Below, in pieces: positions 1-64,000 of a stretch of DNA of 64,000 nt; positions within the stretch are counted from its first letter, which is position 1, and each line of letters opens with the position of its first letter. The notes beneath the pieces are model-generated. The model saw only the letters and a program-made list of their open reading frames with translations, was not told the DNA's origin and searched no databases. A program made the position numbers and the translations under genes. The DNA is from an uncultured virus (IMG/VR IMGVR_UViG_3300022660_003376) (Duplodnaviria > Heunggongvirae > Uroviricota > Caudoviricetes). The stretch lies in the IMG/VR virus record IMGVR_UViG_3300022660_003376; one strand, given 5' to 3'.

Positions 1-1
1 T

Positions 2-202
2 AAAAGTTTAAGAATACAGACTCCAGATGGTTTCTGTATATATGCAAACCCAGACGCTAACGGTGAGTCAATGGGGCATACTGTTGATATAACTGGCGTA
101 TTGAGGTTTTGGTATGGTACTTTCATAATAACGAAGGAGACTGGCGAGGTTTTGCAGGATATGTCGGAGACAGACCTACATAATTTTGCGATGGCTTCGT
201 AG
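2..202 (+). CDS. 3' end of a hypothetical protein (partial, enters from left edge; weak DUF3846-like resemblance)
   Basis: Frame 2 is open from base 2 to TAG at 200-202 (...RFWYGTFIITKETGEVLQDMSETDLHNFAMAS*); not in the ORF track. Confidence 0.55.
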   Translation, partial: KSLRIQTPDGFCIYANPDANGESMGHTVDITGVLRFWYGTFIITKETGEVLQDMSETDLHNFAMAS

Positions 203-218
203 TGTTGGAGGTGGTATA

Positions 219-479
219 ATGCAGTCACAAAACCCTTATAGGATACTTGGGGTATCTGAGGGTGCTAGTTTGGCGGAGTGCAAGAGTGCATATAAGAAGA
301 GGATGCGAGAGCGTCATCCAGACTTCGGTAAGTCTGAGGATGATATAAAACAACGTGAGATTGACTCAAAGCTTTTGAATGAGGCTATGAGTATAATAGC
401 ACAAAGGTTTAAGTCAGGGGTAAAACCTGTTTCTCGTCAAACTACATTTACACACAAGGATTTGTTCACGTTTATGTAA
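219..479 (+). CDS. Small J-domain (DnaJ-like) co-chaperone
   Basis: NPYRILGV...KSAYKKRMRERHPD J-domain signature with HPD; GGAGG upstream of ATG 219 (track start 186 is probably too early). Confidence 0.85.
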   Translation: MQSQNPYRILGVSEGASLAECKSAYKKRMRERHPDFGKSEDDIKQREIDSKLLNEAMSIIAQRFKSGVKPVSRQTTFTHKDLFTFM

Positions 480-558
480 TAACTATCTCGTGAGATTTCA
501 CGTTAGTTAATATATAATAAATATAAAATATATTTTTAAAATTAAAGGAGAAGATATT

Positions 559-2526: not shown

Positions 2527-3014
2527 ATGCGTATATTTTATAACAATATAAAAATACATATGATGTAATATAATTTCTATATGAAATATAAAAATATGGC
2601 ATACTGATACACAAAAATGCAACCCTTTGATTTATATGCTTTTAGGGCATAAATCAGGGGTTATTTTGCTTGTATTGCTTTGGGTACGTATACTTACATT
2701 ACCCCTGTAATCCGTGCGTATTTTGGCTGTTTGTTTGGCTCTGTAAACTGCAAATAAAATTAAAATTACGAGTTATATATTGTTTGGTGGAGTCAATATT
2801 TCAATATGTGCTTATTCTATGGTTTAAAGCGAAAAATGCTTTAGATTGGCGATTTTTTAATAAGATTGCTGTTCTGAGATGAAAAAATATGTGTTAGAAG
2901 TGGCTTGAAAATCGTTCGCATTTTTGCATAAGTTTTTTCTTCATTTTCGAAGATTTGTTTTGGGGCTGAGTAGGAAATTGACTCTTTTGGGGTATTATTT
3001 GCTTAAAAATTTTG

Positions 3015-3505
3015 TTGTTTTGATACTGGAATGCATTGAATTGCATCGAATACGGGCTGTTATGATACTGGAATGTGCTGAATTGTATCAAATATTGGCT
3101 GTTCTGATACTGAAATGTGTTGATTTGTATTAAATACTGGCTGTTGTGATACTGAAATGCGTTGAACTGATATTAAATACTGTTTGTTTTGATACTGGAA
3201 TGCGTTGAATTGATATTAACTTCGTTTGTGTTGATACAAAATTTATTTGTTTTAATCCTAAACAACATTTGAATTGAGTATAAACTCACTTGAATTGATA
3301 TTGACATCGTTTGTTTTGAGTATAAACTTCTTTGAAAATAAGTTATTTTTGTTTGAATTGATTTCAGCGACTAGAATGATATCAAATCTGGTTTGAAATG
3401 AGTCTAGCATAATTTGAATTGAGTATAAACAAAATTGAATTTACATTAAAATATTTGAATTGATACTTCACCTATTTGAATTGATACAATAATTGATTGA
3501 ATTGA
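3015..3505. repeat. Helically phased array: ~24 TTGAATTGA/TTGTTTTGA-like motifs at ~21-bp period (first half is 5-6 copies of a 42-bp unit)
   Basis: tgatac(tg) at 3021, 3063, 3105, 3147, 3190, 3232; ttgaattga-like motifs at 3269, 3290, 3311, 3332, 3353, 3393, 3414, 3435, 3455, 3476, 3497. Confidence 0.9.
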
Positions 3506-3858
3506 TGAAAGCAGACTATTTGAGGTCAGCTTTGCTTTGAAGTTTTGTCGTTTTGCTATGATACAGTATAGCCTTTACAAAATGAGGTATTAAGTCTATG
3601 TGGTTTATGTGCTAGTCTTAACAATGACATTCGTATTGAAATCGTATATAATCTATTGTTTGTGTTTGAGTGTCTATAGTTTAATATTGTTCTTATTTAA
3701 TATATCAAAATAATGTGTGTCAGTGCTACAATAATATATTGAAAATACTTGACCACAGTGCATAAGATGTGTGGCAGGGGAGTACGAAGTAAATATAATT
3801 GTGTGTCACACAGGCAATTGAGATTATTATGTTCTGTAGTGTTGCTTATGCTTATGTT

Positions 3859-4110
3859 CATGCAGGCAGGGTGTGAGTCTAAGTCAGTTTATAAGAGTGG
3901 TGTGAGTCTGAGTCAGTTTATAAGAGTGATGTAGTTAAGTTTGTCTTTGTATGAGTCTATTATGTGATATTTACAGCACATGCAAGTAGGGTGTGAGTCT
4001 AATTTAGTATACAATGGTGATATAGCTAAGTTTATCTTTATATGAGTCTATTATGTGGCACTTATAACACAATATTGGCGTTAAGTAGACGAGTTTATCT
4101 TTATATGAGT
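3859..4110. repeat. Nested direct repeats rich in TGAGTC
   Basis: 29-bp tandem ggtgtgagtct(a/g)agtcagtttataagagt at 3870 and 3899 inside a longer unit starting catgca at 3859 and 3979; partial third copy at about 4091-4110. Confidence 0.8.
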
Positions 4111-4854
4111 TTATTTGGAACATTGTTTTTAACACATGAGTTTGAGCATGTAAGTTTTGTTCATAATATTATGTTGGTACATGTAGACACTATAAGGATA
4201 TAAGTTTGCTTGTCCATTTAAATTCATTCTGTTTTCCAAGTCAGTTGTAATCCACCTTTAGAGTATAAGAATGGACTTGTGTTTGTATACCGTTCATTCC
4301 ACCATCAGTCACAGTACAGACATATTGAGTATGAGGTCATACACTCTGCTTCATAAGTGAGAAAAACTACATCTTTAGGGTATCTATTACTGATTTAATA
4401 TTTAATTTGTTATATGAGAAGCACACCTACACCATTAAACATATACAATAATGAGTCGTGTATTATCGATAGTCATTAACATATATAAAACAACTGAAGT
4501 TTGGGTATCTATTTCTGAGACATTGTATTATATGGTCTGTAGGCTAACAAGCGTTAATATCACGTTAGCCCATGCCTAACTTTATATTGGGTATCTATAA
4601 AAGTTTTTTGAAAAGTGCGGATTTCGGGTCGATTTCGGGGCTTTTTGAAAAAACAATGTTATCTGCACACGGAAAAGTGGCTATTGGGTGTATTTTTGCA
4701 ATAAAATCGCTAACTTTGAGTGTAAATATTTTTGTTGATGCGTTTATATAAATCGTGATATAAAATACACAAAATCGAGTCAATATTTATCGTTGATTTG
4801 TAATAATTGTTTTGACGCTATTTATTTTATAAGTTACATAAGGAGGATTTTAAT

Positions 4855-7091: not shown

Positions 7092-7222
7092 TTTCAAACA
7101 AAAACTTCAATGAGTACGACTTATAACTCATAAGGTGTGCTATATTTAGTTATCAAGTTTTGTTTTTGAGATTTTATATAAGGCTCTATGTATGGTATAT
7201 AAAAATTCAAGGAGGTATTTTT

Positions 7223-9571
7223 ATGGGTGCTTTAGATAAATTGCAGATGTACAGTGCTAAGAAAGAGAATGCTCTTGTTAGTCCTGTAGCTGAATACTTT
7301 GATATAAAATCACCAGAGGGGTATTTCTTAAACACAATACACAATTTAGGGTATCGCATTGTGGAGACAACGTATACTCAGGGCGATAAGGTATTGACTA
7401 AGTCTGAGTATGATGCTCTTGAGGATAAGGCAGGCGTTGAAGTAGGTACTCAATTGACTGAACTCGCTAAGATGCTTACGACAAAAGGCGATATGCTTGC
7501 CAACTCTACAGCAGGTAGTGGTAAAACTACTGCATTAATATTTAGGATAATGAGAGACATAGCAACTGGTGAAGCAACTAAGAAGGTTACCTTACCAGAT
7601 GGTACAACAGTATCAACGTTGGATTCGATATTTGTTGGGACATTCCTTAAAACTGGTGCAGACGAGTTAAAACAGAAGCTAGCTTCATGGCAGAGAAATC
7701 TCAAATATTTTGTGACCGCAGACCGCATACAATTTGGTACATTGCATGCTGAATTTAAACGTGCTTTAAATGCTTTAGGAGCACCAACACCTATAGGTTC
7801 TGCCGATGCTATATCTAGATGTCTTAAACGTGCAATAGACGACCTTAGTATAAAGCGTGATGGAAGTTATGCTTTAACTTATGAAGACTATAGAACAATT
7901 GAAAGTATAGTTTCTTTCTACAGAAACAGGTTAGACAACGATAAGTACAACCATCCGTCAGCAAAGGACTATGGTTTAACTCCATTGATACTCGATAGTT
8001 TAGTAACTAAGTTTGCTAATGAGCGAAAAGCTGAGGGTATCATGGACTTTGAGGATTTGCAAGAATTACTTTACAAGTATTTATATGTAACTCCAAATCC
8101 AGATATACAGAATTTCATTGCTTCGAGATACAAGTTTATGTATTTGGATGAGTTTCAGGATACTTCTCAGATACAGTATGCAATATTGAAGTTTTACATG
8201 AGGGGTAGGTTAGCTATTAACCGTTCAGGTGAGGCAATGCCTGTTGGAATGGAGACTGGTTTGTATACTGGCGAGGAGACTAGTGGCAAAATCATTGCAG
8301 TTGGCGATGACGACCAGTCAGTTTATAGATGGAGAGGCTCGGATATCGACATTATCATTAAGAACTTTCCAGAAGACTTTAAACCACAAATTGTACAGTT
8401 AAGTACAAACTATCGTTGCCCATCCAACATTCTCAATCCTATTAAGACAAGTATTGTAAAGAATACTGATAGATTTCCAAAGAACCTTAGGTCTAGTCGA
8501 GAAGGCGGTGAGTTCCACGCATATACTGCTTTAACAGTGCAAGTTATGATAGAGCATTTATTACAGCAGATAGAGGAAGATACTCTTAACGGTAAGTCTG
8601 TAGCAATACTTTGCAGAACAAACTTTGACGGGGTAATACCTGCGTTAATGTTGGAGATGTCAGGTAAGTATCAATTCAGTGTTTCTTCGGAGGCTATGAC
8701 ATTGAGTAGTGCAATGCCGAAAACGGTAATAAATTGTGCAAGACTATTTACAGATAGGACATCACAGTATGTAATAAATACTTTGAAGCTCTTTGTAGAT
8801 AGGTCAGACCAATGGTCTGTACAGGAACTTGTAAAGCGTTTAAAGGCAGACGCTTCAATGGGTGTGGGTAGGTCAGTATTTGATATAGCCCCTGAGGATT
8901 TGGCATATTCTAGCCCTAAACTTGCTACGCTTATAAAGACGTTGAAGACATATCTGTACGATAGTAACGGAAATGCAATTAAAGGCGGAGACATCGAGGC
9001 ATTAAAGGTGTTATACTTAAAACTCCTTATAGATGTATATGATGGTGATTCTGCTTATTGTTCGAAGATACGTGCATATATACAGGCGGTTCTGTATGTA
9101 TTGAAGGTGAGAAAGTTTACGTCAGCAGATGATTTCCTCTCAACCATGAGTGATTGGAATGATTGTCTAAATGCGAGGGTAGGTAAGGCATACAAGGTAA
9201 AAATAGCAACGGTGCATGAGTTTAAGGGTAAGGAAGCTGATTGCTGTTACATTTGGCATGATTCACGTGATTTATTCCCTGCAAGTAAGACAAACACTAC
9301 TGTAAAGGTAGATTTCGAGGAAGAGCGTAGGGTACATTACATTGCTTGTACTCGTGCGAGGGAGAAGAGTATAGTATACGCTCTTGCTAAGAACGCAGGG
9401 GAATTCTTTTATGAACTGGATTGCACTCCAGAGTTAATAAGACCAGTCAACAAGGGTAAATTATCTGGTGTAAGTCAGGAAGCTGAGTTCACAAACACAG
9501 ACCCACTTGATGTATTAATCGAAAACTACAGACAGAAAGAGACAGAAAAAGAAGCAGAAACTGTGAGTTAA
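7223..9571 (+). CDS. UvrD/PcrA/Rep-family superfamily 1 DNA helicase
   Basis: STAGSGKTT, LDEFQDTS, VGDDDQSVYRWRG, LSTNYRC, TVHEFKGKE, EERRVHYIACTRA motifs; GGAGG before ATG 7223. Confidence 0.95.
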   Translation: MGALDKLQMYSAKKENALVSPVAEYFDIKSPEGYFLNTIHNLGYRIVETTYTQGDKVLTKSEYDALEDKAGVEVGTQLTELAKMLTTKGDMLANSTAGSGKTTALIFRIMRDIATGEATKKVTLPDGTTVSTLDSIFVGTFLKTGADELKQKLASWQRNLKYFVTADRIQFGTLHAEFKRALNALGAPTPIGSADAISRCLKRAIDDLSIKRDGSYALTYEDYRTIESIVSFYRNRLDNDKYNHPSAKDYGLTPLILDSLVTKFANERKAEGIMDFEDLQELLYKYLYVTPNPDIQNFIASRYKFMYLDEFQDTSQIQYAILKFYMRGRLAINRSGEAMPVGMETGLYTGEETSGKIIAVGDDDQSVYRWRGSDIDIIIKNFPEDFKPQIVQLSTNYRCPSNILNPIKTSIVKNTDRFPKNLRSSREGGEFHAYTALTVQVMIEHLLQQIEEDTLNGKSVAILCRTNFDGVIPALMLEMSGKYQFSVSSEAMTLSSAMPKTVINCARLFTDRTSQYVINTLKLFVDRSDQWSVQELVKRLKADASMGVGRSVFDIAPEDLAYSSPKLATLIKTLKTYLYDSNGNAIKGGDIEALKVLYLKLLIDVYDGDSAYCSKIRAYIQAVLYVLKVRKFTSADDFLSTMSDWNDCLNARVGKAYKVKIATVHEFKGKEADCCYIWHDSRDLFPASKTNTTVKVDFEEERRVHYIACTRAREKSIVYALAKNAGEFFYELDCTPELIRPVNKGKLSGVSQEAEFTNTDPLDVLIENYRQKETEKEAETVS

Positions 9572-10772: not shown

Positions 10773-12305
10773 ATGCATTTTATTGAAGAGGCTAAGTTAA
10801 TGCTTGAAGATAATATAAAGGGTAGGCGAGTATTGATTTATGGTGACCCAGACGTAGATGGTATGGTTTCTTTGTTATTGGTCACACATCTATTAAACGG
10901 TATGGGTATCGAATACGCTTATTATGTAAATGAGAACAGGCATCACGGGTTTGTATTAGAGCCAGCGATGCTCAGAGACAGTTTTATAATCTGTGTTGAC
11001 TTTGAGGTAAAGCAGGATATACTTGAAGCACTTGTTGCAGAGGGTAGCTATGTGCTTAGTTTAGACCACCATGATATACAGTCCGAGCCTATAAAGATAT
11101 ATAATTCCGAAGGTAAATTGGGAGGTATCGTAATAAATAATCAGTATCCATTTGAACCAGATGAAGACAGGTACTTGTCAGGTGCAGGTGTTGTATATGA
11201 GGTGTTTGGAGAAATGTATCCAACATATAAGTCAAAGGAAAGGGAAGCCTTAGTAGGAATTACTTTGTTATCTGATGCGAGAGCAATTGAGAACAAGAAA
11301 GCTAGGGCTTATCTTAAAACATTATACAACTCAGATGCTCAATCGGGGTATCTTGGGTATTTAGTCAATAATGTAATAACTGTAGATTATAGTTTCGGAG
11401 CACCTAAGTTCGATAGAAACTTTGTAGACTACACATTCTCTCCAAGAATAAACTCATTGTTACGCTTTGGTTATGAAAATGAAGCTCTTGATTTTATATT
11501 AGGCAAAGGTTTAGCTGTACAGGGTACTAAAGAAAGACAGACCGATTTACTCCAGACAATTAAAGCAAGAGCGAGTTATTTGGATTTAGAGAATATCAAG
11601 GTCATCGCTGTAAATATGGACTCTTTTTCTGACTATGCAGATATAAGACTTGATAATTTTATTGGGTTATTGTGCAATGACGTAAAGGGTAATGGTAAGT
11701 CAGTGCTTGGTTTTACGTACAGTGGCAACACAATAGGCAGAGCATCATTTAGAGGTAGGTATGATGATGTCAAATATCGTGAGATGGCATTATCTTTAGG
11801 TTTAGACGCTCAAGGTCACTCTGGTGCATTTGGTATATTGAACTTTAATCCTACAAAAGAATTATGGAGTAGGCTGAATGAAGCTGTGGGTATTGCAGAC
11901 GGAAGTCACACGCAAACGGTGAAAGTAATTGAGACGAGTAATTTAGCCTTTACAATCTTACAGAAAGGTTTACATACTGCTACGGAAAATTGCTATGTGC
12001 GAGATATGTATCGAACATATTTTAAATACACTGGTAGTAAAGCTATAATTTTGAAGGAGACATATAAAACAGAGCCTTTAACACAGGAAGAAATAGCAAG
12101 AGGTATCAAGTATGATAAGTTAGTGAATAAGATACCTCATAAATATATACTTTCCTCTGATGGAAAGCGAGTACCTAAGTTTATTGAGTATTCTGTCGAT
12201 GGGCAGAGAGTAAAATCATTTGGTACATCAATAAGTGAGGGGTATATTTTGCCTATGCTTGAGAAGGGAGGCTTACAGTTATATGTGAAAGATGCAATAG
12301 ATTAA
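10773..12305 (+). CDS. recJ: RecJ-like DHH-family single-stranded DNA exonuclease
   Basis: IYGDPDVDG, LDHH, SGAGV, SPRINS, ASFRG, GHSGAFG motifs; GGAGG before ATG 10773. Confidence 0.85.
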   Translation: MHFIEEAKLMLEDNIKGRRVLIYGDPDVDGMVSLLLVTHLLNGMGIEYAYYVNENRHHGFVLEPAMLRDSFIICVDFEVKQDILEALVAEGSYVLSLDHHDIQSEPIKIYNSEGKLGGIVINNQYPFEPDEDRYLSGAGVVYEVFGEMYPTYKSKEREALVGITLLSDARAIENKKARAYLKTLYNSDAQSGYLGYLVNNVITVDYSFGAPKFDRNFVDYTFSPRINSLLRFGYENEALDFILGKGLAVQGTKERQTDLLQTIKARASYLDLENIKVIAVNMDSFSDYADIRLDNFIGLLCNDVKGNGKSVLGFTYSGNTIGRASFRGRYDDVKYREMALSLGLDAQGHSGAFGILNFNPTKELWSRLNEAVGIADGSHTQTVKVIETSNLAFTILQKGLHTATENCYVRDMYRTYFKYTGSKAIILKETYKTEPLTQEEIARGIKYDKLVNKIPHKYILSSDGKRVPKFIEYSVDGQRVKSFGTSISEGYILPMLEKGGLQLYVKDAID

Positions 12306-13254: not shown

Positions 13255-14316
13255 ATGGGCTTATTCAAAAAAGAGTACTCTCCGACAAATCCTACAGACA
13301 TATTGACAAATATCTTTAGGACGATGTCTGGTGATACATTGAGTAGAACGCTCAGATACAACATATTTTACAAAATAGTTGCGTTTAAGGGTGTTAAAGA
13401 CGGTCTTGGGTGTTCAACTATAGTTGCTAATACTGCGTTAGCTTTGGCTAAGGCAGGTATAAATGTATGTGTCGTAGACACGAGCATACTTAATCCATGT
13501 CAGAATGATTTATTACATACGAACTACATGGATATAAACGAGAAGAAGCAGGAAGACTGGTTTACTCTCGGTCATACTGAGAAGACTGTATTAAATCAGT
13601 CGGGGCTAAACAGTCGTATTTCTGTTTTGGCGTTTAAGAACAGGACGATAGTGGACTTAGCGTCTACTTTAGACAGTGATGCGTTGGTATCTTTGGCTTA
13701 TTCACAGTTAGCAACTAAGTTTGACATAATATTGGTTGACGTATGTGCTGAGACATCAAATATATGCATGGCAAGTATGCAGTATGCACATAAGATTATA
13801 CAGGTATGGAGTAATGCACCTCATGTTATGAAAAACGTAGATGAGTTTATAAAGAATACGTCAATAATGTCTATTCCTTTAAACAAGATGCGTTATGTTA
13901 TAACATCCATGACGATTGATGACATACCTATGGACTGGAAGAATGTATTAAATCAGTACAAGTTTAAACATCTTGCACATGTGGGTATGTCTTTGGAGAT
14001 TGCGAGAATACTTGCAACAGGCAAGATAGTGTATGAATTTGCATCAAACAGCAAAGACGTGCAGGAGTTTAATGAGTGCATACTTGATATAGTGACTCAC
14101 TTAGTATTACCTACGAAGGATATCAAGGAAGTTAAAATGACAGACTTAGATAACATGGGTATCTCTGACGGAAGATTAAGTGGGGTATTTCTTAGGGAAC
14201 ATGCTGATACTTCTAAGGACTTTCCAGAGGTATCGTGGCAGACTAAGGAGGGTAATGAAGAGAGGCAGATGCTACGAGATGTAGCGGAGCAGATAGAGTT
14301 AGGAGGCGACAGTTAA
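13255..14316 (+). CDS. CpaE/TadZ-like MinD/ParA-fold protein with degenerate Walker A
   Basis: IVAFKGVKDGLGCSTIVANTALALA, VCVVD, FDIILVD. Confidence 0.75.
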   Translation: MGLFKKEYSPTNPTDILTNIFRTMSGDTLSRTLRYNIFYKIVAFKGVKDGLGCSTIVANTALALAKAGINVCVVDTSILNPCQNDLLHTNYMDINEKKQEDWFTLGHTEKTVLNQSGLNSRISVLAFKNRTIVDLASTLDSDALVSLAYSQLATKFDIILVDVCAETSNICMASMQYAHKIIQVWSNAPHVMKNVDEFIKNTSIMSIPLNKMRYVITSMTIDDIPMDWKNVLNQYKFKHLAHVGMSLEIARILATGKIVYEFASNSKDVQEFNECILDIVTHLVLPTKDIKEVKMTDLDNMGISDGRLSGVFLREHADTSKDFPEVSWQTKEGNEERQMLRDVAEQIELGGDS

Positions 14317-15909
14317 TTGCTTAGTTTAAACACAATTTACTTATCCCAGCAGAAATATGGTGTTAGCGTGACACAGTTATCTGACAAAGACAGAATAAAC
14401 TATGGTTTATATCTTGCGAATTGTCGTAATTACATAAGTGATAAAACGCCAGCCGATTATTTCAACTGGGAAAGGCAGAAGCAAATGAGTTTCTCCGAGA
14501 CACTTATAATACAGTATGTTACGAGTAACGAGAAGGAAGTAGATGGCTTTATAACTGATACAGGCGAATTTTTAATAACAGAGTTAATAGACCGTTTGAA
14601 GACGGACATAATTGACTTTGGTATTCTTCGTAAGGCGTTGGATGATGATGAAGTGCAGGAGATACAGATAAATGATTACAAGTCTATCTGGATTGTTAAG
14701 AATGGTAAGAGCATGATATACACTGATGATTTGGGTAAGCCATATCAGTTTGTTTCTGATGATGAACTTCACGCAACAATAGACAGACTTGTATTTAACA
14801 ACAAATCTGGTGCTCAGTCAGCACGTATGACTACTGAGAACCCATTATTGAATACAAGAACATCTAACAATGGCTTTCGTGTATCAGGTGTAAACCACTC
14901 AGCAGTAACTCCAGACATGAGGGTAGGTTTTGATTTCCCTGTAACAACAATTACAATACGTAAATATGCACCAAGTAGACTTACGTTTTCTGACTTTATA
15001 GAAAACGGAACTTTAACGGAAGAAATGGCTCAGTTCCTTAAGATATGTGGTGGTTCAAATATAAAACTGGCATGTGTCGGACCGACTTCTTCTGGTAAGA
15101 CTACATTATTAAATGCGATAGTATGGGAAATCCCTAAGGAACAGCGATTAATACTTATTCAGAACCCAACGGAAATAATGGTATATGAGCGTTCTGAGGA
15201 GACGGGTACTAATCTTAGAAACACGGTACATTGGGAAGCAAGTGACCTTAGTGCTAAGGCACAGGGAGAGCCAACAACGCCTACGATGAGTAACTTTATT
15301 GCTCATTCATTGCGTAATACACCTGATGTTATAATTCCAGGTGAAGTTAGAACACCTGAGGAGTTCTTCCAGATGAACAGAGCCTTAAAGACAGGTCATA
15401 GGGTATTAACTACATTCCATGCTACAGATGGTGCTGATGCTATTGAGCGTATGGCAACTGAACTGGCGACATTGGGAGGTAGTATTCAGGACTATGTAAG
15501 TTCGCTTGTACGAAGCTTGGATATCATAGTTACGCAGATAAAATTTCCAGACGGTAAGCGTAGGGTTTCTTCGATTGAGGAGTTGACTGGTGGAGTTGAT
15601 AAGAACGGAAGAGCAGAAACGAGGGTACTCTTTAAGTTTGAATTGACTGGTGTTACAGACAGGGACGAGTACGGTAATATAACTAATGTACATGGTGAAT
15701 TTAAGAAAGTGTCAAGTATAAGTGATTCTTTAGTGCAAAAGTTTTATCAGTCAGGTGTTACAAGAGAAGAGTTACTGCCTTTCTTATCGGGTACTGACGC
15801 ATCTGGAAAGTATGAGGCATCCGACCAAGCATACAAGGGTATGTCATTAGACGATTTTAATGCTGGTCTGGATACGGTTTCGCATACGCTTGAAGGGGAG
15901 TTGATATAA
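14317..15909 (+). CDS. CpaF/TadA (VirB11-family) secretion ATPase
   Basis: EIQIN, ITIRKY, GPTSSGKTTLL, LRNTPDVIIPGEVR, TGH, TTFHA; TTG start abutting the previous stop with AGGAGG RBS. Confidence 0.93.
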   Translation: MLSLNTIYLSQQKYGVSVTQLSDKDRINYGLYLANCRNYISDKTPADYFNWERQKQMSFSETLIIQYVTSNEKEVDGFITDTGEFLITELIDRLKTDIIDFGILRKALDDDEVQEIQINDYKSIWIVKNGKSMIYTDDLGKPYQFVSDDELHATIDRLVFNNKSGAQSARMTTENPLLNTRTSNNGFRVSGVNHSAVTPDMRVGFDFPVTTITIRKYAPSRLTFSDFIENGTLTEEMAQFLKICGGSNIKLACVGPTSSGKTTLLNAIVWEIPKEQRLILIQNPTEIMVYERSEETGTNLRNTVHWEASDLSAKAQGEPTTPTMSNFIAHSLRNTPDVIIPGEVRTPEEFFQMNRALKTGHRVLTTFHATDGADAIERMATELATLGGSIQDYVSSLVRSLDIIVTQIKFPDGKRRVSSIEELTGGVDKNGRAETRVLFKFELTGVTDRDEYGNITNVHGEFKKVSSISDSLVQKFYQSGVTREELLPFLSGTDASGKYEASDQAYKGMSLDDFNAGLDTVSHTLEGELI

Positions 15910-16853
15910 TGCAGAAGATAACAACACTTGTAACAATTATCGTATTTATTGCTTTGGTATATTTCTTTTCATTTCAGTTTCAAAAGGCAATCACGAGTGC
16001 GTTGACTGCAATATCTAAGAAGATTGGTGTATTCTCTGCAAACAGGGAATACGCTATTCAGAGATATGTATATTTACATCGTAGAAGTTTTATATCCAAG
16101 GCGTATTACTGGATAAATGAGCAGTTAGTTGCGAGTGGCTTGAAGAGAGCAGGCGTAACGCCTGTAGGCTACATATTATTTTGGTTATCCGTTTCTGCGG
16201 TGATAACAATAGTTACGGCATTCACAACAAATCTGCGAGGTATACTTGTGCTAATAACGTTTATTGCGTTGTTTATTGTGTTCTTGACTTTAACACGAGT
16301 TTTTGTATCAAGTCAGATGGAACGCAGAGAAAACGAGATTATGGACGCACTAGACCTAATCATACCTGAGTTAGGTTCTGGTGTAAAACGTGCTATAGCG
16401 ATGTATGTTGATAACTTTGCACCGTCAATACAGGGTGAGTTTAAGGTATTCTTATCAAACATACAAGATAGAGGTTACACATTCCCTGACGCTATGTATA
16501 TTTTATCTGATAACTTGGGTATGATATTCAGGGACTTTGCTCAAAAGGCGATATCATATGAGGCACAGGGTGATAAAGAGATGCTTGGGGTGTTTGATGA
16601 TATTGTAGAGACAAACCGTCAGAGACGTGAGTTGAGATACATAAACGCATCAACATTTCGTTCTTTGAGATTGTCATTCTCACTTTCGAGTATAATAGTT
16701 GTAGTTTATTTCATCATAATGATGGCAAGTGATGGTTTCAGCAGATACTTCTTCTTGACTACAGACCTTGGAGTATTTTTATTGGTTGTGATACTCTTGA
16801 TTATATTTGGTGTATTCTCATATATTGCAACAATAAAGTCGAGGGAACTATAG
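15909..16853 (+). CDS. TadB-like inner-membrane platform protein
   Basis: Multi-TM, follows TadA, DALDLI..LGSG and terminal TM pair typical of the T2SSF/TadB fold. Confidence 0.7.
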   Translation: MQKITTLVTIIVFIALVYFFSFQFQKAITSALTAISKKIGVFSANREYAIQRYVYLHRRSFISKAYYWINEQLVASGLKRAGVTPVGYILFWLSVSAVITIVTAFTTNLRGILVLITFIALFIVFLTLTRVFVSSQMERRENEIMDALDLIIPELGSGVKRAIAMYVDNFAPSIQGEFKVFLSNIQDRGYTFPDAMYILSDNLGMIFRDFAQKAISYEAQGDKEMLGVFDDIVETNRQRRELRYINASTFRSLRLSFSLSSIIVVVYFIIMMASDGFSRYFFLTTDLGVFLLVVILLIIFGVFSYIATIKSREL

Positions 16854-16868
16854 TTTAGGAGGTAGTTT

Positions 16869-17813
16869 ATGTATTATGTAGTTGTTGGTATATTATTGAC
16901 ATATGCTGTATTTAACATACTTAGACTATTTGGTGTGTTTGAGAAGTCATCGGGTACTGCAGGGTTAAAGGCAAATGCGACACAGGACAAGAAGAAACAG
17001 CGTAAGCGAAAATTTGAAATTGCTAAGTTACGCTTTTATACTTCGCTAACTGACTTAGTGCAGGGTATCGCTATGACTGAAGACGGGTATGTTGAATTGA
17101 AGTTTTTAATAGATAGATTAGAGATACGAAGCAGTGTACTTGACAGACTTCTCACTCCAGCGGAGTTGAGAGGTCGTCAGTTAGTGTTCTTCTTAATATC
17201 GCTTATATGCGTACCGCTGATAGTGTTTAGCAAGCTATTTTTGGTGATAGGTTGTGCAACAGCAATAGTAGGTTGCATTTATATAACAGTTTTGAGAGAG
17301 AAAGTAAGTAAGGAAGATGATATAATAAACCTACATTTTATCGATTTATACTTGCTTATGTATTCAAAGCTACGTCAAGGCAGTAAGGCGAGATTGCAGA
17401 AGGTAGTTGAGTCTTATATAGAAACTCTGAGGGTATCCTCTAACGTAGAAGTTCAGGCTACAATGATGAAGTTTGCAAAGTTTTTTGTGAGTAATTTGTC
17501 TATGTACGAAGACCATGTTGCTGTACCGATGCTCAGAGAGCGTTACAAGTCGGCAGTTATAGTGAATTTCTGCAATATAGCAACTCAAGCTTTGCAGGGT
17601 ATCGATAATGCGGATAGTTTGCTTACATTGAAGCAGGAGTTGATGCGTAGAAAGTCAAGTAAGATGAGGGAGAATGCTGAACGTTTAAGACAAAAGGGTG
17701 AGAAAGCAATATACATGATTTATGTTGTTCTCTTTATCTTGATACTTGTTAGTTGGTATTCAAAGATGCCAGCTGATATGTTTGATACAATCCATTCAAT
17801 GTTAGGTTCATAG
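16869..17813 (+). CDS. TadC-like inner-membrane platform protein
   Basis: Second multi-TM protein of the same size following TadB. Confidence 0.65.
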   Translation: MYYVVVGILLTYAVFNILRLFGVFEKSSGTAGLKANATQDKKKQRKRKFEIAKLRFYTSLTDLVQGIAMTEDGYVELKFLIDRLEIRSSVLDRLLTPAELRGRQLVFFLISLICVPLIVFSKLFLVIGCATAIVGCIYITVLREKVSKEDDIINLHFIDLYLLMYSKLRQGSKARLQKVVESYIETLRVSSNVEVQATMMKFAKFFVSNLSMYEDHVAVPMLRERYKSAVIVNFCNIATQALQGIDNADSLLTLKQELMRRKSSKMRENAERLRQKGEKAIYMIYVVLFILILVSWYSKMPADMFDTIHSMLGS

Positions 17814-17826
17814 GAGGTGATATAGT

Positions 17827-18177: not shown

Positions 18178-18184
18178 CTCCTCA

Positions 18185-18354: not shown

Positions 18355-18388
18355 CTTGATAAATATTATTATTTAGGAGGACTCGGTA

Positions 18389-28250: not shown

Positions 28251-28803
28251 GTTGTAACCTAAGTATTTTCTGCATTTTCGGAGATTTTTAAAATAGAGTT
28301 GACTTCTCGATATTTTCTGTAATTTAAATATGAAAAGAGGGCAAGGCGACTTTATAAGACTGCTTTCGTCAGTTTAATGAAAGCTATGTAATTTTATAGC
28401 ATTTGAAGTGCAATATTAAAAATATTTTTATAAAACTGATTTCAAAACTTTTAGATAATTTGTATTTTTCGTAGTTCTGATGGTTGAAAATATCGTTGCT
28501 AATTTTAAACGTGTTATTATATAAGTTAGTTGTAGTTGAACCGTAATACTTACTTATATAACGGAGAGTATTTTGTGGAGGTGTGCATATGTATAGTTTA
28601 GTAAACTCGGTAAGTGCAGACATATTTTTAGTATATAATATGGTATAAGGGGATGCTCAAGAATTGTCTTAATGTGCAGATAACTTATCTGTAAGTATAC
28701 TAATCAGTTAAGTATATTGTTCTAAGCATATAAGAAATAGCTACACATGATATTTAGTGCAAGATAAATTGTATTATACAAATAAATTTTGGAGGAGTAT
28801 ATT

Positions 28804-29949
28804 ATGTTCAAAAGGAGTACTACAGACTCACGAAGAGTCAGGATAGTAGACTACGCACATATGGCTTGGTCGTATGCACATGGTAATGCAACACCGCTAA
28901 GTTGTATGTTAGAGGTTAATGGTGTAAAGCAAGTTGTGGATACAACAATCCCAGCGTATACAATAAAGGCGTTAAACAGATATGCAAAGAACGGGGTGTA
29001 TCCGCTAGTAGTTTGTTTTGATAGTAAGGGTTGTTCAGCCTGTCGAAAGGTGTATTTTTCGAAGATATGGGGTATCGATTCAGAGGCTCAGTGCAAAGGT
29101 TATAAGGCTAGACGAGAGTTACCAAGCGGTAGTTTCTTTGATGGAATAAATATAACATCAAGCTTTTTGGTTGAGGCAGGTGTAACTGTTCTCAAGGCAG
29201 AGCACTATGAGGCAGATGACTTAGTAAAGGCTAGTGTTGACGCAGCCAAAAGAATGTATCCCGATTTACCGATAGACATAATTACAGGCGACCATGACCT
29301 TGTTCCGTTGGTAGATGAACAAGTAAGTGTATATCTAAGAAGTGTTAAGACTACATGGGCTGAAAGTAGAGACATAGAAATTCCACACTATGTTCAGATA
29401 ACACCTAAGAACTATCAGGAACATCTGCAGGGTCTAAGTACATATAAGACAAGCAAGTTACAGATTCCATACAACACTGTATTACTTGCTAAGTTACTCA
29501 GAGGGGATAAATCAGACGAAATTCCAGGCAAGTCAGATTGGAAGCCTAAGGTGTATAATCAGCTGATAGATATTCTACAGGCTGAAGAAGACATAGAAAA
29601 CTTATTTGTATATGATGCACCTGTAAAGAATATAGTATACAAGGACAGTTGGTTACCTGTACCGAGTGATAAGATAGCAACAACTCCAAGAGACCAGATG
29701 ATGGTTAAGTGGGGTGAACCGCCAGCTTTAACGAGAATATGTGAGGTACTGAGTAAATACTGTGAAGAAGACGACATAAATCACATAAGAAACATATATA
29801 ACGGAATAAATCTAAACGGTGCTTTCACAGGTTTACCAGACGGGTACAATAGAAGTCCAGCTGTAGTTACAGCCGAGATAAAAGGGTACTCACCGATTAG
29901 GTTGCAGGCTGTAGTATCTAAGTTAGGGATTAACATACCTAATGTATGA
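28804..29949 (+). CDS. Stand-alone 5'-3' exonuclease / flap endonuclease (PolA N-terminal-like)
   Basis: IVD, VVCFD, YKARR, YEADD, TGDHD, LRGDKSDEIPG acidic motifs; GGAGGAG before ATG 28804. Confidence 0.9.
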   Translation: MFKRSTTDSRRVRIVDYAHMAWSYAHGNATPLSCMLEVNGVKQVVDTTIPAYTIKALNRYAKNGVYPLVVCFDSKGCSACRKVYFSKIWGIDSEAQCKGYKARRELPSGSFFDGINITSSFLVEAGVTVLKAEHYEADDLVKASVDAAKRMYPDLPIDIITGDHDLVPLVDEQVSVYLRSVKTTWAESRDIEIPHYVQITPKNYQEHLQGLSTYKTSKLQIPYNTVLLAKLLRGDKSDEIPGKSDWKPKVYNQLIDILQAEEDIENLFVYDAPVKNIVYKDSWLPVPSDKIATTPRDQMMVKWGEPPALTRICEVLSKYCEEDDINHIRNIYNGINLNGAFTGLPDGYNRSPAVVTAEIKGYSPIRLQAVVSKLGINIPNV

Positions 29950-44774: not shown

Positions 44775-46127
44775 ATGGCAGATTTGTCATACGCAAGAAA
44801 ATACAGACCTGCGACAATGAAAGGGTACATTGGAAACGATAAAGTTAAAAAGACTGCTTTTGCATCTTTAAAAAGAAACATTAGACCGCAGGTTATTTTA
44901 CTTGAGGGTTCAAGTGGTTGTGGTAAAACCACATTTGCTCGTCTTTTAGCCAAGGAATATCTATGTGAGAATAGGGATGTAGAGACTGGAGCGTGTGGTT
45001 GTTGTCCAAACTGTGTTGCTTTGGAGGAGTATATACATACGGGCGTTACTGATATGCTTCAATCAGTTAAAGAAATAAACATCGCAGACCAGAGTGGTAA
45101 GCGTGATATTGATACTGTATTAGATGATATGCTTATTCCAACATTTGATGGTGAGTGGAAAGTGTATATATTTGACGAATGTCACATGGCTACACCTCAG
45201 GCACAGAATAGAATGCTAAAAATAGTGGAAGAACCGCCTGAGAATGTTCTGATACTGTTTTGCACTACAAATCCAGAGGCTATGCTTGATACCTTGATAA
45301 ACAGATGTCAGTTATCGCTTCATGTAAGAAAGCCGTCTGTATCTGAGTTAGGTGGTTTGTTAAGGGGTGTTTGTTCTGCTGAGGAAGTAGACTGTGATAT
45401 AAAGGGCGTAAACTTTATAGCAAACAGGGCTAACTTGACAATACGTAAGGCGTTATCTTACTTAGAGAGGGTAGTTACTGAGCGTGGGAGTGCATATTAC
45501 GAAGACGCTATTAGTGTATTTGAGGAGATATCAGATGCACAAATCATTCAGTTTTACAAGAAGCTGATAGGTACACCAGAGTATGATGCGAACGGTAATA
45601 TAAAGAGACACTCAAACGGCACAGCGATTTACAAGCGAGACATATTAGGGTATGTAACTTTACTACATCAGATAAAAACTTCTCTTGAGTTAAAACTATT
45701 CGTGCAGAGTTTAACTGACTTCACGATTAAAGGGTTGTATGTAATTAATCAGATAAATCTTGATGGGGTATCTGACGGTGAGTTAAGTATATACAGGGAG
45801 ATATTTGGTTCATTTTCTATAGAGCAGATTGCTAGTTTGTTGCACAAACTTACAACACTAAGGAATGGCGATATCGAGACTGAGTTGTTACTCTTGGGTT
45901 ACACTGGTTTACTGCCATACAGAGAAGAAGCAAATCCAATAACGACAGGTACTGGTTTAGATTACAACCCATCTGAGTTAAACATGGAAAGTAAACGTGA
46001 GTCTAAAAGCCGTGAGGAAGCAAGGAAAGAAAATCAGGCAAATGGGATAACTAGAATAGAGGAGATGTCGGAGCAGATGGATTTTTCTGCTTTGCAGGCT
46101 ATGTTTGGCGGTGCAACAGTTGTATAA
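44775..46127 (+). CDS. dnaX: DNA polymerase III gamma/tau-like clamp-loader subunit
   Basis: ARKYRP, GSSGCGKTTFAR, ACGCCPNC zinc module, KVYIFDECHM, LKIVEEPP, NRC. Confidence 0.9.
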   Translation: MADLSYARKYRPATMKGYIGNDKVKKTAFASLKRNIRPQVILLEGSSGCGKTTFARLLAKEYLCENRDVETGACGCCPNCVALEEYIHTGVTDMLQSVKEINIADQSGKRDIDTVLDDMLIPTFDGEWKVYIFDECHMATPQAQNRMLKIVEEPPENVLILFCTTNPEAMLDTLINRCQLSLHVRKPSVSELGGLLRGVCSAEEVDCDIKGVNFIANRANLTIRKALSYLERVVTERGSAYYEDAISVFEEISDAQIIQFYKKLIGTPEYDANGNIKRHSNGTAIYKRDILGYVTLLHQIKTSLELKLFVQSLTDFTIKGLYVINQINLDGVSDGELSIYREIFGSFSIEQIASLLHKLTTLRNGDIETELLLLGYTGLLPYREEANPITTGTGLDYNPSELNMESKRESKSREEARKENQANGITRIEEMSEQMDFSALQAMFGGATVV

Positions 46128-61447: not shown

Positions 61448-61475
61448 GAATGTGGTAGTTTGGAGGAAAGTTTTT

Positions 61476-62747
61476 ATGAGAGCAATTGTGACAACAGACC
61501 AAGCAATACAGCTTAGGGAGTATGAAGGGTATACTATAGTTTCTTCTTTGAAGGAGTTATTTCGTTCAGACGTTACAGATATAGTATTACATACTCCTCA
61601 GGGTAAGCCTCAGGATATTGTATTGGATATCAGTGCTTTGATGAATAACAGACCGAATTTAAAATTGGTTTACATCAACGATAATCCCGTTTCTCTTTTG
61701 AGAATGGCTATAGACAGCTTAAATGGGGTATGCTTGACAAATACAGCCTGTTTGGAGTCTGCAGATGACCTTAACTCTTTGTTTGAGGATTATGCATTAG
61801 TTAATATTCAGGAGGCTACAATGTTGCACAACATTGAGGTACTTCAGAATTTTATAGGTGAGTTTATATCAAGTAACGGTAATGTATCATCTTATAACGT
61901 TACTTCAGCAAAAAGGGCTTTGACTCAGTTACGTGAGGAGGCTCATATACCCTTTGAACAGGCAAGAAAGATAGGTACTACGGCAATGGAAGTATTAAAT
62001 GAAACACAGGATTACCTTAGACAGCTGAATGAGCAGTATATAAAGTTACAGGAACAGCTTAAACTTTTAGAGGGTAAGCCGAAGCCTATAGCACCGTCAT
62101 TCACATCGGGCACTCTGTTTTATCCTACAGTTGAGATAAACAATATACCTTTAACTAAAATACTATATATTAAAGAGTATTCACCTTGCAGGTATTTAAC
62201 TTCATTTTTACTTGCTTACAGGAACTATTTAAATTATAAGCGTAATAAGAGAGTTAAGTTAGTATTTGTAATACAGAGAGGTACTTGCATTTCTAAGAGA
62301 TATGATTTTGCTACGATGATTTCACAGGAGTCTGCAAAAGATGCATCTTTATTTAAGAATGACATAATAGCTGTTAATGTTCCGCAGAAGCAGGTTATTG
62401 AAAGACTTCTTAATAAAGATGGTGGTAACTACGACATAGTTATTTTAGTAGACCGTCTTTACAGTGCGAATATTTTAAAAAGTTCACACAAGAACTTTAA
62501 GAAGCTAGATGCAATATCAGGCAAGAGTGATATTACCAGATACGGCTTAAATACATCAAATGTAATATTACCTCACATAAGTTTATCAGGCAAAGAATTT
62601 GGTTTCATACCTATTATTAAGTCATATCCTGCCGAGGATGAGAACAGCAGATATGTTGCATATCAGCATGCATGTGGCGAAAAGGGTGTTTTGGGTGATA
62701 AAGACAAGTCTTTATACGATAAACTTGATAGTTTAATCGGAATTTAG
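61476..62747 (+). CDS. Hypothetical protein with central coiled coil
   Basis: GGAGG before ATG 61476; receiver-like N-terminus, YDIVILVD in the C-terminal domain. Confidence 0.7.
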   Translation: MRAIVTTDQAIQLREYEGYTIVSSLKELFRSDVTDIVLHTPQGKPQDIVLDISALMNNRPNLKLVYINDNPVSLLRMAIDSLNGVCLTNTACLESADDLNSLFEDYALVNIQEATMLHNIEVLQNFIGEFISSNGNVSSYNVTSAKRALTQLREEAHIPFEQARKIGTTAMEVLNETQDYLRQLNEQYIKLQEQLKLLEGKPKPIAPSFTSGTLFYPTVEINNIPLTKILYIKEYSPCRYLTSFLLAYRNYLNYKRNKRVKLVFVIQRGTCISKRYDFATMISQESAKDASLFKNDIIAVNVPQKQVIERLLNKDGGNYDIVILVDRLYSANILKSSHKNFKKLDAISGKSDITRYGLNTSNVILPHISLSGKEFGFIPIIKSYPAEDENSRYVAYQHACGEKGVLGDKDKSLYDKLDSLIGI

Positions 62748-62762
62748 TTAGGGGGTTAATAG

Positions 62763-64000
62763 ATGTTATTTAGACACAAGAAAAGAACAGTACCAGCGAT
62801 AAAGTTATGGGATAAGATAGTTTCTTGTTGGTTAAGTAAGAATGATAGTACTCATGGTGAGTTACGTTCAGCACCATATTATATGGACATGAAGGGTATT
62901 TATAGTGGCGAGAATAACGTAACTTATGTTTACACAATAGACGGGTATCCTGCTGAGTTAGATATCTCATACAGGAGTTTGCTTCGAAGAGAGTGTAAGG
63001 ACGGGGTACGAATATCGTTCATAAGTACTTTTGACAGACATAGGATACAATGGACATCACCGCAGATGAAATCAAAGCTTCGTACATGGAGATTGCTTGA
63101 CTCTGATGGTGAAGGCGTAGATGCTTATAATATACATGATAACATGGCTATACTCGATAGTCAGGCAAGACGCCGTGAGAGTATAGAGTATCTTACAGAT
63201 GCAGAAATAAGAAGAAGGCGAAAAACCTTTAAGTTTAGAAGTATAATGCTTGTGTCTGGGCAAAGAGGTGATAATTTCAATGATACAATAAAGGAATTGA
63301 CTGAGACCTGTGATGCTATGGGTATAAAGCTAACTAGGGTACTGTTAAATATTCAGGATTATCTGAGTGTGTTTAGTCCGTTTAGTTTAGAGTTTAGTGG
63401 TGATGTGTTAAAGCAATGTGGTAGTAATGTACTTACAGACGAACTGCTTGCAAGGCTAAACACATACGCTCAGGGTACTATCGGTAAGAGAGGTGAGTAT
63501 TGGGGTACTGATATTTATTCATCGTTCCCTTGCTTTAAGGAAGCAAAGAAAACCGCTGAGTCAAATGAAAGTTGGTTGATAACTGCAGAAGCAGGCGGTG
63601 GTAAATCGTTTTTTGTTAAGTCTTTGTGCTTTCAGTTGCTTGCAAATAGTAAGTTTAACGGAACGATAATGGATATCGAAGGTTTTGAGTACATACCGAT
63701 GTCATCTTACTTATCCAATCACGATGACGTGGTAGTTTTAAACATGGCTGAGGGTAGTGGTGTATATTTTGACCCAGTTGAGATAATATTGACTGGAGAC
63801 AAGGATAACGATGAGGGTATGTATAGTTTAAGTACATCATTCACATTGTCAATATTTAAGGTATTGCTTGGAGGGCAGGAAGATGACTGGGTAGACATAG
63901 TTATCAACGATGCAGTAGCTTTAACATACAACAAGCAAGGTGTATTTCAGGAGGATATGAGTACATGGCACAAGTCAAGGGGGTTGACATTGTATGATGT
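62763..64000 (+). CDS. VirB4-like conjugative ATPase (partial, runs off the right edge)
   Basis: ORF MLFRHKKRTVPAIKLWDK... open to the window end; in-frame WLITAEAGGGKSFFVK (Walker A, about 63585), IMDIEGFEY and YFDPVEI match the VirB4 order of motifs; absent from the ORF track. Confidence 0.75.
   Translation, partial: MLFRHKKRTVPAIKLWDKIVSCWLSKNDSTHGELRSAPYYMDMKGIYSGENNVTYVYTIDGYPAELDISYRSLLRRECKDGVRISFISTFDRHRIQWTSPQMKSKLRTWRLLDSDGEGVDAYNIHDNMAILDSQARRRESIEYLTDAEIRRRRKTFKFRSIMLVSGQRGDNFNDTIKELTETCDAMGIKLTRVLLNIQDYLSVFSPFSLEFSGDVLKQCGSNVLTDELLARLNTYAQGTIGKRGEYWGTDIYSSFPCFKEAKKTAESNESWLITAEAGGGKSFFVKSLCFQLLANSKFNGTIMDIEGFEYIPMSSYLSNHDDVVVLNMAEGSGVYFDPVEIILTGDKDNDEGMYSLSTSFTLSIFKVLLGGQEDDWVDIVINDAVALTYNKQGVFQEDMSTWHKSRGLTLYD

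Follow-up and report, generated by a model that had tools for sequence, protein, structure and literature searches.

GGGTA, a dense one-way word in the genes of megaplasmids related to pXO16

The subject here is the five-base word GGGTA in a 64,000-nucleotide stretch of DNA (hereafter the window), held in IMG/VR as the uncultured virus record IMGVR_UViG_3300022660_003376, and in its relatives. We found the window to be a collinear relative of pXO16 (pBTHD789-1, NC_018516.1), the 350-kb plasmid of Bacillus thuringiensis sv. israelensis. pXO16 was reached by tblastn against plasmids, and 21 of the 57 open reading frames (ORFs) of the window have tblastn matches there (E < 1e-5), in strictly increasing order. 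GGGTA, or more exactly GGGTAB (B is C, G or T), is very probably a selected one-way word of the megaplasmids of the pXO16 family, kept at a constant density and not at fixed positions, whose reader is encoded by the elements and not by their hosts. An earlier note, made from the letters of the window, had proposed a selected, oriented signal of the form GGGTAY. This central claim holds, since the word is enriched over a codon-shuffled null, conserved in a diverged family, missing from a co-resident plasmid and evenly spaced in two complete relatives.

The window carries 219 copies of GGGTA on the + strand and 8 on the - strand. The abundance of GGGTAY on the + strand that had been reported is real, with 151 copies against 3 (GGGTAT, 101 against 2; GGGTAC, 50 against 1); GGGTAG occurs 44 times against 1 and GGGTAA 24 times against 4. 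The field as a whole and the individual copies referred to below are as follows.

1..64000, + strand: field of 219 co-oriented GGGTA copies, with a mean spacing of 292 bp and 7-22 copies per 4 kb; 200 lie in ORFs and 19 are non-coding.
11345..11360, + strand: two GGGTA copies 9 bases apart in the RecJ-like gene, GGGGTATCTTGGGTAT.
4378..4387, + strand: non-coding copy 1 of the extended form GGGTATCTAT.
4503..4512, + strand: non-coding copy 2 of GGGTATCTAT.
4589..4598, + strand: non-coding copy 3 of GGGTATCTAT.
2700..2704, - strand: reversed GGGTA copy, one of the 8, located in AT-rich non-coding DNA ahead of the PcrA-like module.

The stretch 11342-11360 and the three non-coding copies of gggtatctat, at 4378, 4503 and 4589, read as they had been quoted.

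The codon-shuffled null that had been named in advance as a check was applied to the genes of the window. Genes were called greedily as 57 non-overlapping + strand ORFs, covering 57,279 of the 64,000 bases, and the synonymous codons were permuted within each gene 500 times, with the protein and the per-gene codon usage kept. The ORFs contain 200 copies of GGGTA against 81.9 ± 6.8 expected (z = 17.4), and the maximum of the 500 shuffles was 106. GGGTAY is present 137 times against 46.0 expected. GGGTAG is also enriched (41 against 12.7), so that GGGTAT, GGGTAC and GGGTAG each stand about 3-fold over expectation, and GGGTAA shows no enrichment (22 against 23.2). The proposal of GGGTAY was therefore right as to enrichment and too narrow as to the word, which is GGGTAB. 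An unbiased scan of all 4- to 7-mers ranked GGGTA as the top enriched 5-mer of the window, with GGGTATC (41 against 5.2 expected) and GGGTACT (31 against 4.5 expected) leading the 7-mers. The refined consensus of the window is GGGTA preceded by A more often than by G or T and rarely by C, followed by T more often than by C or G and rarely by A, and then by T or C.

The claim that all three reading frames carry the word was confirmed: 36, 51 and 113 copies were counted per frame against 10.5, 17.2 and 53.9 expected, each with a z of about 10. The proteins of the window permit GGGTA at 553 sites, and 197 of these are filled. Non-coding DNA is enriched as well, with 19 copies against 5.2 expected (3.6-fold; none of 1000 shuffles reached 19). 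At the level of codons, 34 of the 54 Gly codons before TAY (63%) are GGG, compared to 11% of Gly codons overall, and the share of GGG before codons with any other first two letters ranges from 0 to 33%, in line with the preference before TAY that had been described. Arg-Val is indeed often written AGG-GTA (23 of 50). The parallel statement for Gly-Val holds only in part, because GGG-GTA accounts for just 22 of 109 pairs and GGT-GTA is equally common at 25.

In each of the low-GC family members tested, no word is more enriched than GGGTA or its extension. Over the whole of pXO16, GGGTA occurs 930 times on the coding strand and 46 times on the other, GGGGTA 658 and 5 times, and AGGGGTA 461 and 2 times. 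Unbiased scanning placed GGGGTA and AGGGGTA first among its 6-mers and 7-mers, and by codon shuffle its genes hold 492 copies of GGGGTA against 115 expected (z 49-57) and 315 copies of AGGGGTA against 46.9 expected (z 55). Two more members were located in IMG/VR through the VirB4-like protein. One of them, G002, is a gut element whose complete record of 179,785 bp has terminal repeats, and in it GGGTA is found 526 times against 54 by strand. Its genes contain 481 copies against 227 expected (L238/G002, z 19-25); GGGTAB is present there 419 times against 158 expected (z 23) and GGGTAA 62 times against 69. For the other, G003, the counts of GGGTAT on the two strands are 306 and 17. Four relatives came through the clamp loader: L001 (14.7 kb; 83 against 4 by strand, 48 against 21 expected in genes), L003 (21 kb; 91 against 6 by strand, 81 against 37 expected in genes), L161 (8.5 kb; 22 on the coding strand and 0 on the other) and L162 (5.6 kb; 13 and 1). 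The genes of L239 have 84 copies against 36 expected. GGGTA is the top 5-mer of L001, L003, L238 and L239 in unbiased scans, and the five loci densest in it among 225 are L001, L003, L161, L162 and the 2-kb L002. The flanks are lineage-specific, being A-G-GGGTA-[G/T] in pXO16, GGGTA-T-[C/T] in the window and G002, and GGGTA-T-G in L003.

We compared these elements with DNA of the same hosts and with more distant relatives. pBtoxis (50 kb), which is co-resident with pXO16, contains 27 and 15 copies against 27.9 and 16.9 expected from composition. In G001, the metagenome-assembled genome (MAG) that holds L161 by binning only, GGGTAT is found 1672 times in 3.1 Mb and the reversed control word 1327 times, a 1.26-fold difference. 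A 215-kb plasmid of Bacillus velezensis with the same gene order has 96 copies of GGGTA against 78 expected (z 2.3), the 62%-GC clade of IMG/VR (L240-L247) has no GGGTA enrichment, and in IMG/VR a scan with the single clamp-loader protein gave no relative and the clamp-loader alignment brought up only distant dnaX genes, all without the word. GGGTA is at composition expectation in other loci whose GC skew is equal or higher. Because pBtoxis, the high-skew loci and the distant relatives lack the word, neither the host nor G-richness nor one-strand architecture produces it. Some of these relatives have one-sided words of their own. The B. velezensis plasmid (L234; NZ_CP076292.1, 165001-215000; GC skew 0.35) has GGTTAA as its top word (66 against 34 expected, z 7.4; 69 against 9 between strands), which also ends in T-A after G's. 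In L240-L247, where the VirB4-like protein is 33-34% identical and the coding strand is C-rich (skew -0.17), the hexamers GCCCTC, CAGCAG and CCTACA/G are each found about 25-36 times against 0-1, with a codon-shuffle z of just about 5.

The copies are spread evenly in the two complete elements. In pXO16 the spacing of GGGGTA has a coefficient of variation (CV) of 0.71, the smallest value among 84 comparably abundant six-mers (median 1.05). Its largest gap is 2071 bp against about 3450 expected, and 1.2% of its gaps are shorter than 53 bp against 9.5% expected. The CV for GGGTA in G002 is 0.74, the lowest of 128 five-mers, with a largest gap of 1277 bp and a short-gap deficit that is not significant. 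Compared with random draws from the protein-permitted sites, the CV is 0.867 in pXO16 and 0.845 in G002 against 1.05 ± 0.05, and 0 of 2000 draws in each case matched it. The density of the word in pXO16 is 1.55-1.87 per kb in every gene-length class, and because it is steady over these classes the word scales with length and not with genes. The positions themselves are unconserved, since only 4 sites are shared over 9 orthologue pairs. Even the proteins of pXO16 are bent to the word: contexts permitting GGGGTA are 1.31-fold more frequent than in an amino-acid shuffle (z 11.9), compared to 1.04 for a control word. In the window permitting contexts are 1.11-fold over the shuffle, but the reversed word gives the same value.

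The direction of the word is as constant as its density. Round the full circles of pXO16 and G002 its polarity is the same in every 10-kb bin, and the GC skew of pXO16 is positive throughout. The polarity flip at a GC-skew inversion that the earlier note had suggested looking for is absent, as the two complete members have neither a skew inversion nor a gene on the other strand. Likewise, an inverted gene block that could split replication polarity from transcription polarity was sought in pXO16, G002 and all loci, and none was found. These results characterize GGGTA as a signal of the coverage type that gives direction, carried by the DNA or by its transcript, kept by selection and served by a family-encoded reader.

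That the word is no signal at all, and arises as a by-product of context-dependent mutation (for example by the element's own polymerase), of G-richness or of restriction-site avoidance, seems to us very improbable. The elements are heavily sculpted at the level of k-mers, as this explanation would have it. The genes of the window contain no GATC (110 expected), GGCC (27), CCGG (37), GCGC (43) or CGCG (32), and words such as AGAC and GACC rise as a by-product of GATC avoidance. The + strand of the window is G-rich in all 32 of its 2-kb bins (GC skew 0.13-0.29), and the rarity of TACCC needs no selection, most of it being accounted for by this strong skew. TACCC is scarce, as had been noted (8 copies, of which 5 had been named), but composition suffices for this scarcity, which is no evidence of selection: 6 copies are found in the genes of the window against 10.8 expected by codon shuffle (z -1.7), 49 against 50.8 in G002 and, for TACCCC, 3 against 4.1 in pXO16, the last two comparisons having low power. 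The enrichment of GGGTA, however, survives a null that keeps the protein and the per-gene codon usage. The largest deficit among the 15 one-mismatch neighbours of GGGTA is 21, compared to a GGGTA excess of 117; because no neighbour is depleted enough to offset it, GGGTA is not a by-product of avoiding another word, and restriction avoidance was set aside as its source. No one-base variant at the T or the A position is enriched. Loci of equal or higher skew are at expectation and relatives of the same architecture lack the word. Finally, mutation bias would give no even spacing and would leave the 1.31-fold excess of permitting protein contexts in pXO16 unexplained.

The avoidance of short words is itself extreme. 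In addition to the five words above, the genes of the window hold GAATC 0 times against 37 expected, GTTAAC 0 against 16, GAGCT 2 against 39 and CGACG 0 against 27. Restriction-type words are avoided to an extreme degree in the genes of pXO16 (L226-L232) and G002 (L248-L256) as well; pXO16 has 1 GATC and 0 GGCC in 350 kb, and the co-resident pBtoxis has 105 GATC in 50 kb. Homopolymers are depleted in genes too, with 8 TTTTTT against 42 expected in the window and 25 AAAAAA against 788 in pXO16 and 87 against 257 in G002.

All the elements share a one-strand gene layout. All 57 ORFs kept in the window lie on the + strand, and the listed - strand ORFs fall inside them. For pXO16, all 460 rows for coding sequences or genes are listed on one strand in the PLSDB gene table, which is incomplete, and the common orientation is remarked on in a section of a review (PMC6199540); in G002 it applies to 177 of 177 ORFs. 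No close DNA or protein match of the window was found among known phages, the DNA comparison having taken 22639-28101 (5.5 kb). Its DNA recurs in contigs from sequencing runs of animal faeces and bovine gut. The genes recognized in the window include a PcrA/UvrD-like helicase, a RecJ-like nuclease, a Tad-type pilus ATPase set, ParM, an SMC-like protein, a FEN-type exonuclease, a DnaX clamp loader, an HU-like protein, a 1774-residue protein and a VirB4-like ATPase. Those that enter the argument below, together with a repeat region, are the following.

7160..9571, + strand: PcrA/UvrD-like helicase, 34% identical to its pXO16 homologue, in which no nuclease domain was found with Pfam and NCBIfam.
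28789..29949, + strand: 5'-3' exonuclease (FEN-like), belonging to the lagging-strand tools that the element itself encodes.
44775..46127, + strand: DnaX-type clamp loader, the marker for finding relatives, 41.5% identical to the pXO16 protein.
62763..63998, + strand: N-terminal part of the VirB4-like ATPase of a tip-type transfer locus, 47% identical to pXO16; the gene is cut by the end of the window.
3002..3514, no strand: iteron-like direct repeats in a 21/42-bp register within a 2.4-kb non-coding region, a candidate origin or partition site.

Two iteron-like arrays (3002-3514 and 3870-4115) lie in the 2.4-kb AT-rich non-coding region, itself a candidate origin or centromere. One array consists of 5 copies of a 42-43-nt unit and the other of 7 copies of a 41-nt unit, which is built on the 21-nt sub-repeat TTTGAATTGAT; three copies of an 82-nt repeat are found in the same region. 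The Tad-type pilus cluster (13255-20707) comprises genes for a ParA/TadZ-like ATPase, a CpaF/TadA-family ATPase and two 314-residue membrane proteins together with small ORFs, and has no tblastn match in pXO16. The pXO16 matches of the genes flanking it bracket about 15 kb (18.4-33.9 kb) without a match to any window ORF. Acidic low-complexity coding repeats at 40838-41263 and 46741-46777 show indels in contigs of other runs; these length-variable repeats sit in the ORFs 39927-41777 and 46207-46971.

As to the reader, the candidate we favour, though tentatively, is the elements' own primase of the DnaG/T7 type, starting at 5'-GTA-3'. Two separate polypeptides, a CHC2 zinc-ribbon protein and a Toprim_2 protein, would make up this primase, and its partners would be a DnaB-like helicase and a DNA polymerase of family A. 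If the forks move with transcription, the + strand would be the lagging-strand template. The trinucleotide 5'-GTA-3' would then be the start site, its 3' A remaining uncopied and ATP pairing with the T, and the primer templated by the run of G's would be C-rich (pppACCC in the window, pppACCCC in pXO16) and could hold tightly in AT-rich DNA. Selection would ensure that no stretch of 1-2 kb goes without a good start site.

Several findings agree with such a scheme. pXO16 encodes proteins with a PF01807 zinc ribbon and with PF13155 (Toprim_2), a DnaB-like protein and PolA, and G002 has homologues of all four and a ligase. The elements are 33-37% GC. The replication genes of the window are the clamp loader and the FEN. 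Homologues of the Toprim_2 protein have their longest contigs at 124,082 and 153,432 bases, the same lengths as for the closest relatives of the window's clamp loader. The zinc-ribbon protein of pXO16 has 9 relatives in a large protein collection (55-95% identical), three of them named Bacillus; as a query in the MAG G001 it gave no match. According to PMC2978363, DnaG of Firmicutes starts at d(CTA) or d(TTA), from the middle base; the T7 primase reads d(GTC), and one substitution in its zinc domain shifts the reading to d(GTA) or d(GTG); and bacterial Okazaki fragments measure about 1-2 kb. The invariant 3' end G-T-A of the word fits the layout of these sites, and the largest gaps between words in the two complete elements (1.3-2.1 kb) match the Okazaki size. 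GGGTA thus resembles the sites of T7 gp4 and Firmicute DnaG in the uncopied 3' purine, the T pairing with the starting ATP and the primer-templating bases, and the family encodes the matching protein domains. From the best primase word of T7, GGGTA differs in the last base alone. The T7 zinc-domain mutant described in PMC2978363 reads d(GTA).

A number of results weigh against the primase. The earlier note had asked for an element-encoded primase; it is present in pXO16 and G002, but no primase gene lies in the 64-kb window. In the window alone even spacing is not significant (CV 0.993 against 1.048 ± 0.078, P = 0.24). Since all genes run one way, polarity with respect to replication is inseparable from polarity with respect to transcription, and the uniform GC skew of the complete circles may reflect transcription rather than replication direction. 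The same split primase is found in the B. velezensis relative, where GGGTA is not enriched. Single-strand accessibility compared with shuffled flanks gives no sign of selection and no consistent effect, being -0.006 in the window (p = 0.75), -0.038 in G002 and +0.001 in pXO16, and controls behaved alike. T7 itself, whose primase site had been cited as a parallel, was counted: its primase words are enriched just 1.4-fold, with no polarity between the strands (GGGTC 39 against 55, TGGTC 79 against 62). The specificity of GGGTA spans 5-7 strict bases, which sets it apart from primase sites. To our knowledge a strict word of this length, with preferences 3' of an uncopied A, exceeds the specificity of any known primase site. 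Nor do we know of a genome that writes a primase word into its genes with strand polarity and even spacing, and T7 did not when counted.

A post hoc observation concerns the reversed copies. Ahead of the PcrA-like module, the syntenic AT-rich non-coding region of each element contains exactly one reversed copy, at 2700 in the window, 11862 in G002 (L248) and 12522 in pXO16 (coordinate of the coding strand), with a joint chance of about 0.01. The copy in G002 abuts GTGGCA-type iterons, and its other strand reads GGGGTATCTA. Chosen after the fact as they were, these single copies hint at an origin with a leading-strand start. A separate observation concerns the family's Toprim_2 gene in an Oscillospiraceae MAG (L236; G001 contig C498, 1204-6531), which is flanked by three DNA methyltransferase genes of the N6/N4 type, the Dam-like D12 type and the C5 type, with a serine recombinase gene adjoining.

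A role in DNA transfer is possible, though we consider it rather doubtful. The word would be read by the FtsK/SpoIIIE-like ATPase of the tip locus or by a strand-specific nickase such as the ParB_N-HNH protein, and would serve as a distributed loading, direction or entry signal in place of the origin of transfer (oriT) and relaxase that have never been found in pXO16. As two reviews describe it (PMC9673590, PMC6199540), pXO16 is conjugative, with a novel transfer locus named tip and no known relaxase or oriT; it transfers its 350 kb in 3.5-4 min and can mobilise plasmids that lack an oriT, as well as 791 kb or more of the chromosome. By the same reviews it has been studied since 1987, and its origin of transfer, relaxase and mode of replication are unresolved. 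A directional motor, or a system able to start anywhere, would need words that are dense, one-way and evenly spread, and chance copies of a short word in any DNA would fit promiscuous mobilisation. Both the FtsK-like and the ParB_N-HNH proteins are conserved between pXO16 and G002. With the same reserve, GGGTA could be the missing cis signal of pXO16-type transfer, a one-way entry or direction word that lets transfer start anywhere without a single oriT or relaxase. However, no gamma-type DNA-reading domain of FtsK was found, the pXO16 protein matching only the motor domain PF01580 at E <= 0.001, which leaves room for a divergent domain. VirB4-like and FtsK-like genes are also present in the B. 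velezensis relative and in the high-GC clade, neither of which has the word. A word pointing the wrong way should hinder a directional motor, yet the reversed word shows no counter-selection in G002 or pXO16 in the low-powered counts given above. Moreover, uniform polarity on a closed circle is insufficient alone to explain export.

The words read by FtsK and SpoIIIE, the FtsK orienting polar sequences (KOPS) and the SpoIIIE recognition sequences (SRS), are like GGGTA in being polar and G-rich. The 7-8-base pXO16 form AGGGGTA(G/T) is similar in style, and an FtsK/SpoIIIE-like ATPase is encoded. Unlike them, GGGTA is polar without convergence on a terminus, its reversed word is not depleted and no gamma domain was detected; it is also 10-20 times denser than KOPS. 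KOPS had been named as an alternative. Because the polarity is uniform round two complete circles, terminus-pointing of that type is excluded.

We regard it as unlikely that the signal acts at the level of RNA, as GGGUA on long transcripts read by an RNA-binding protein, a ribonuclease, the ribosome or RNA polymerase in stability, processing or elongation. The polarity does match transcription in every element, pXO16 encodes a SpoVG-family protein, and 96 of the 461 copies of AGGGGTA in pXO16 lie 3-12 nt before a plausible ORF start compared to 2% of random positions. On the other hand, Shine-Dalgarno-like words are depleted in genes (GGAGG 106 against 224 in pXO16 and 83 against 161 in G002; AGGAGGA 3 against 12.6 expected in the genes of the window), which is the opposite of GGGTA. 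In the window the word lies in the ribosome-binding region of just 3 of the 57 ORFs. Its density goes by kb and not by gene, its enrichment is independent of frame, and enrichment in non-coding DNA is at least as high. A Shine-Dalgarno-like stabiliser of mRNA was set aside, true words of that kind being depleted inside genes. As for ORF starts in pXO16, AGGGGTA is placed before them about as many times as GGAGG (96 of 461 and 108 of 207 copies), and it seems to double as a ribosome-binding site in about one fifth of the genes. A promoter scan of the non-coding region of the window gave 17 promoter-like sites against 16.4 expected, none of them at the three GGGTATCTAT copies.

A Chi-like word, which halts a helicase-nuclease of the AddAB/RecBCD type at a broken fork or linear end, starts recombination and so protects the element, is in our judgement quite unlikely. 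GGGTA has much in common with Chi of Escherichia coli RecBCD and with the 5-7-base words of Firmicute AddAB: it is short, G-rich and over-represented on the G-rich strand, is placed by synonymous choice and is kept by density and not by position. The 5-base Chi of Bacillus subtilis has a similar density. Coverage-type spacing would limit the loss of DNA, and the UvrD/PcrA-like helicase gene adjoins that of the RecJ-like nuclease. Unlike Chi, GGGTA is not found on the other replicons of the host, being missing from the co-resident pBtoxis and not clearly present in the MAG, which disfavours the host Chi that had been offered as an alternative. No nuclease domain of the AddA, AddB or RecB type was found by Pfam and NCBIfam in the helicase of the window, and no cognate helicase-nuclease was found among the genes of the window. 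One core is kept from Bacillus to gut hosts resembling Clostridia, hosts of different classes, whereas host Chi changes between genera. GGGTA is also much more frequent than Chi, at 1 per 0.3-0.5 kb, and its copies are spaced more regularly. Known host words of the Chi, KOPS and SRS kinds were also counted by strand in pXO16. AGCGG, a Chi word of Firmicutes, is not enriched there and, like GAAGCGG, is not polar (83 against 51 and 16 against 7); GAGAAGGG (11 against 2) and GGGNAGGG (17 against 1) are too few to judge, these being strand counts with no null applied.

The DNA uptake sequences of Neisseria and the uptake signal sequences of Pasteurellaceae resemble GGGTA in their density of about 1 per 0.3-1 kb, their location in genes, their evenness and their restriction to a lineage. 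They are equally frequent in both orientations, which GGGTA is not in the window, pXO16 or G002 (219 against 8, 930 against 46 and 526 against 54); here 96-99% point one way. Polar over-represented words are thus known, in Chi, KOPS/SRS and uptake sequences, and GGGTA differs in being private to a plasmid family, very dense, even and without a terminus. pXO16 shares with the window the collinear genes, the one-strand layout and the core word. It differs in the longer form A-GGGG-TA-[G/T], which also stands before about 96 ORF starts, and in lacking a match to the Tad-like cluster. No description of an oriented GGGTA or GGGGTA word was found in the literature searched, the primary pXO16 papers (Makart 2015, 2018) being outside that scope, and the pXO16 sections of the two reviews (PMC9673590, PMC6199540) do not mention one. 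Taking the evidence together, we infer that the primase ranks first, transfer second, an RNA-level signal third and a Chi-like word fourth, with a non-functional origin unlikely.

The relatives of pXO16 are common, very large elements of animal gut bacteria, and GGGTA offers a simple sequence mark for spotting contigs of the family in metagenomes. A one-way, even word that shapes codons points to a DNA transaction that travels along the full length of the molecule with a single direction. Should the primase be the reader, selection for priming sites across a genome would be seen here for the first time, in the first replicon shown to write its own start sites into its genes. If it serves transfer, GGGTA would be a new kind of oriT and would explain the mobilisation of 'non-mobilisable' plasmids and of the chromosome. 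Because pXO16 can be cultured and is genetically tractable, with about 930 known sites, the question of the reader is testable. The finding is of direct relevance to how pXO16 replicates and is transferred.

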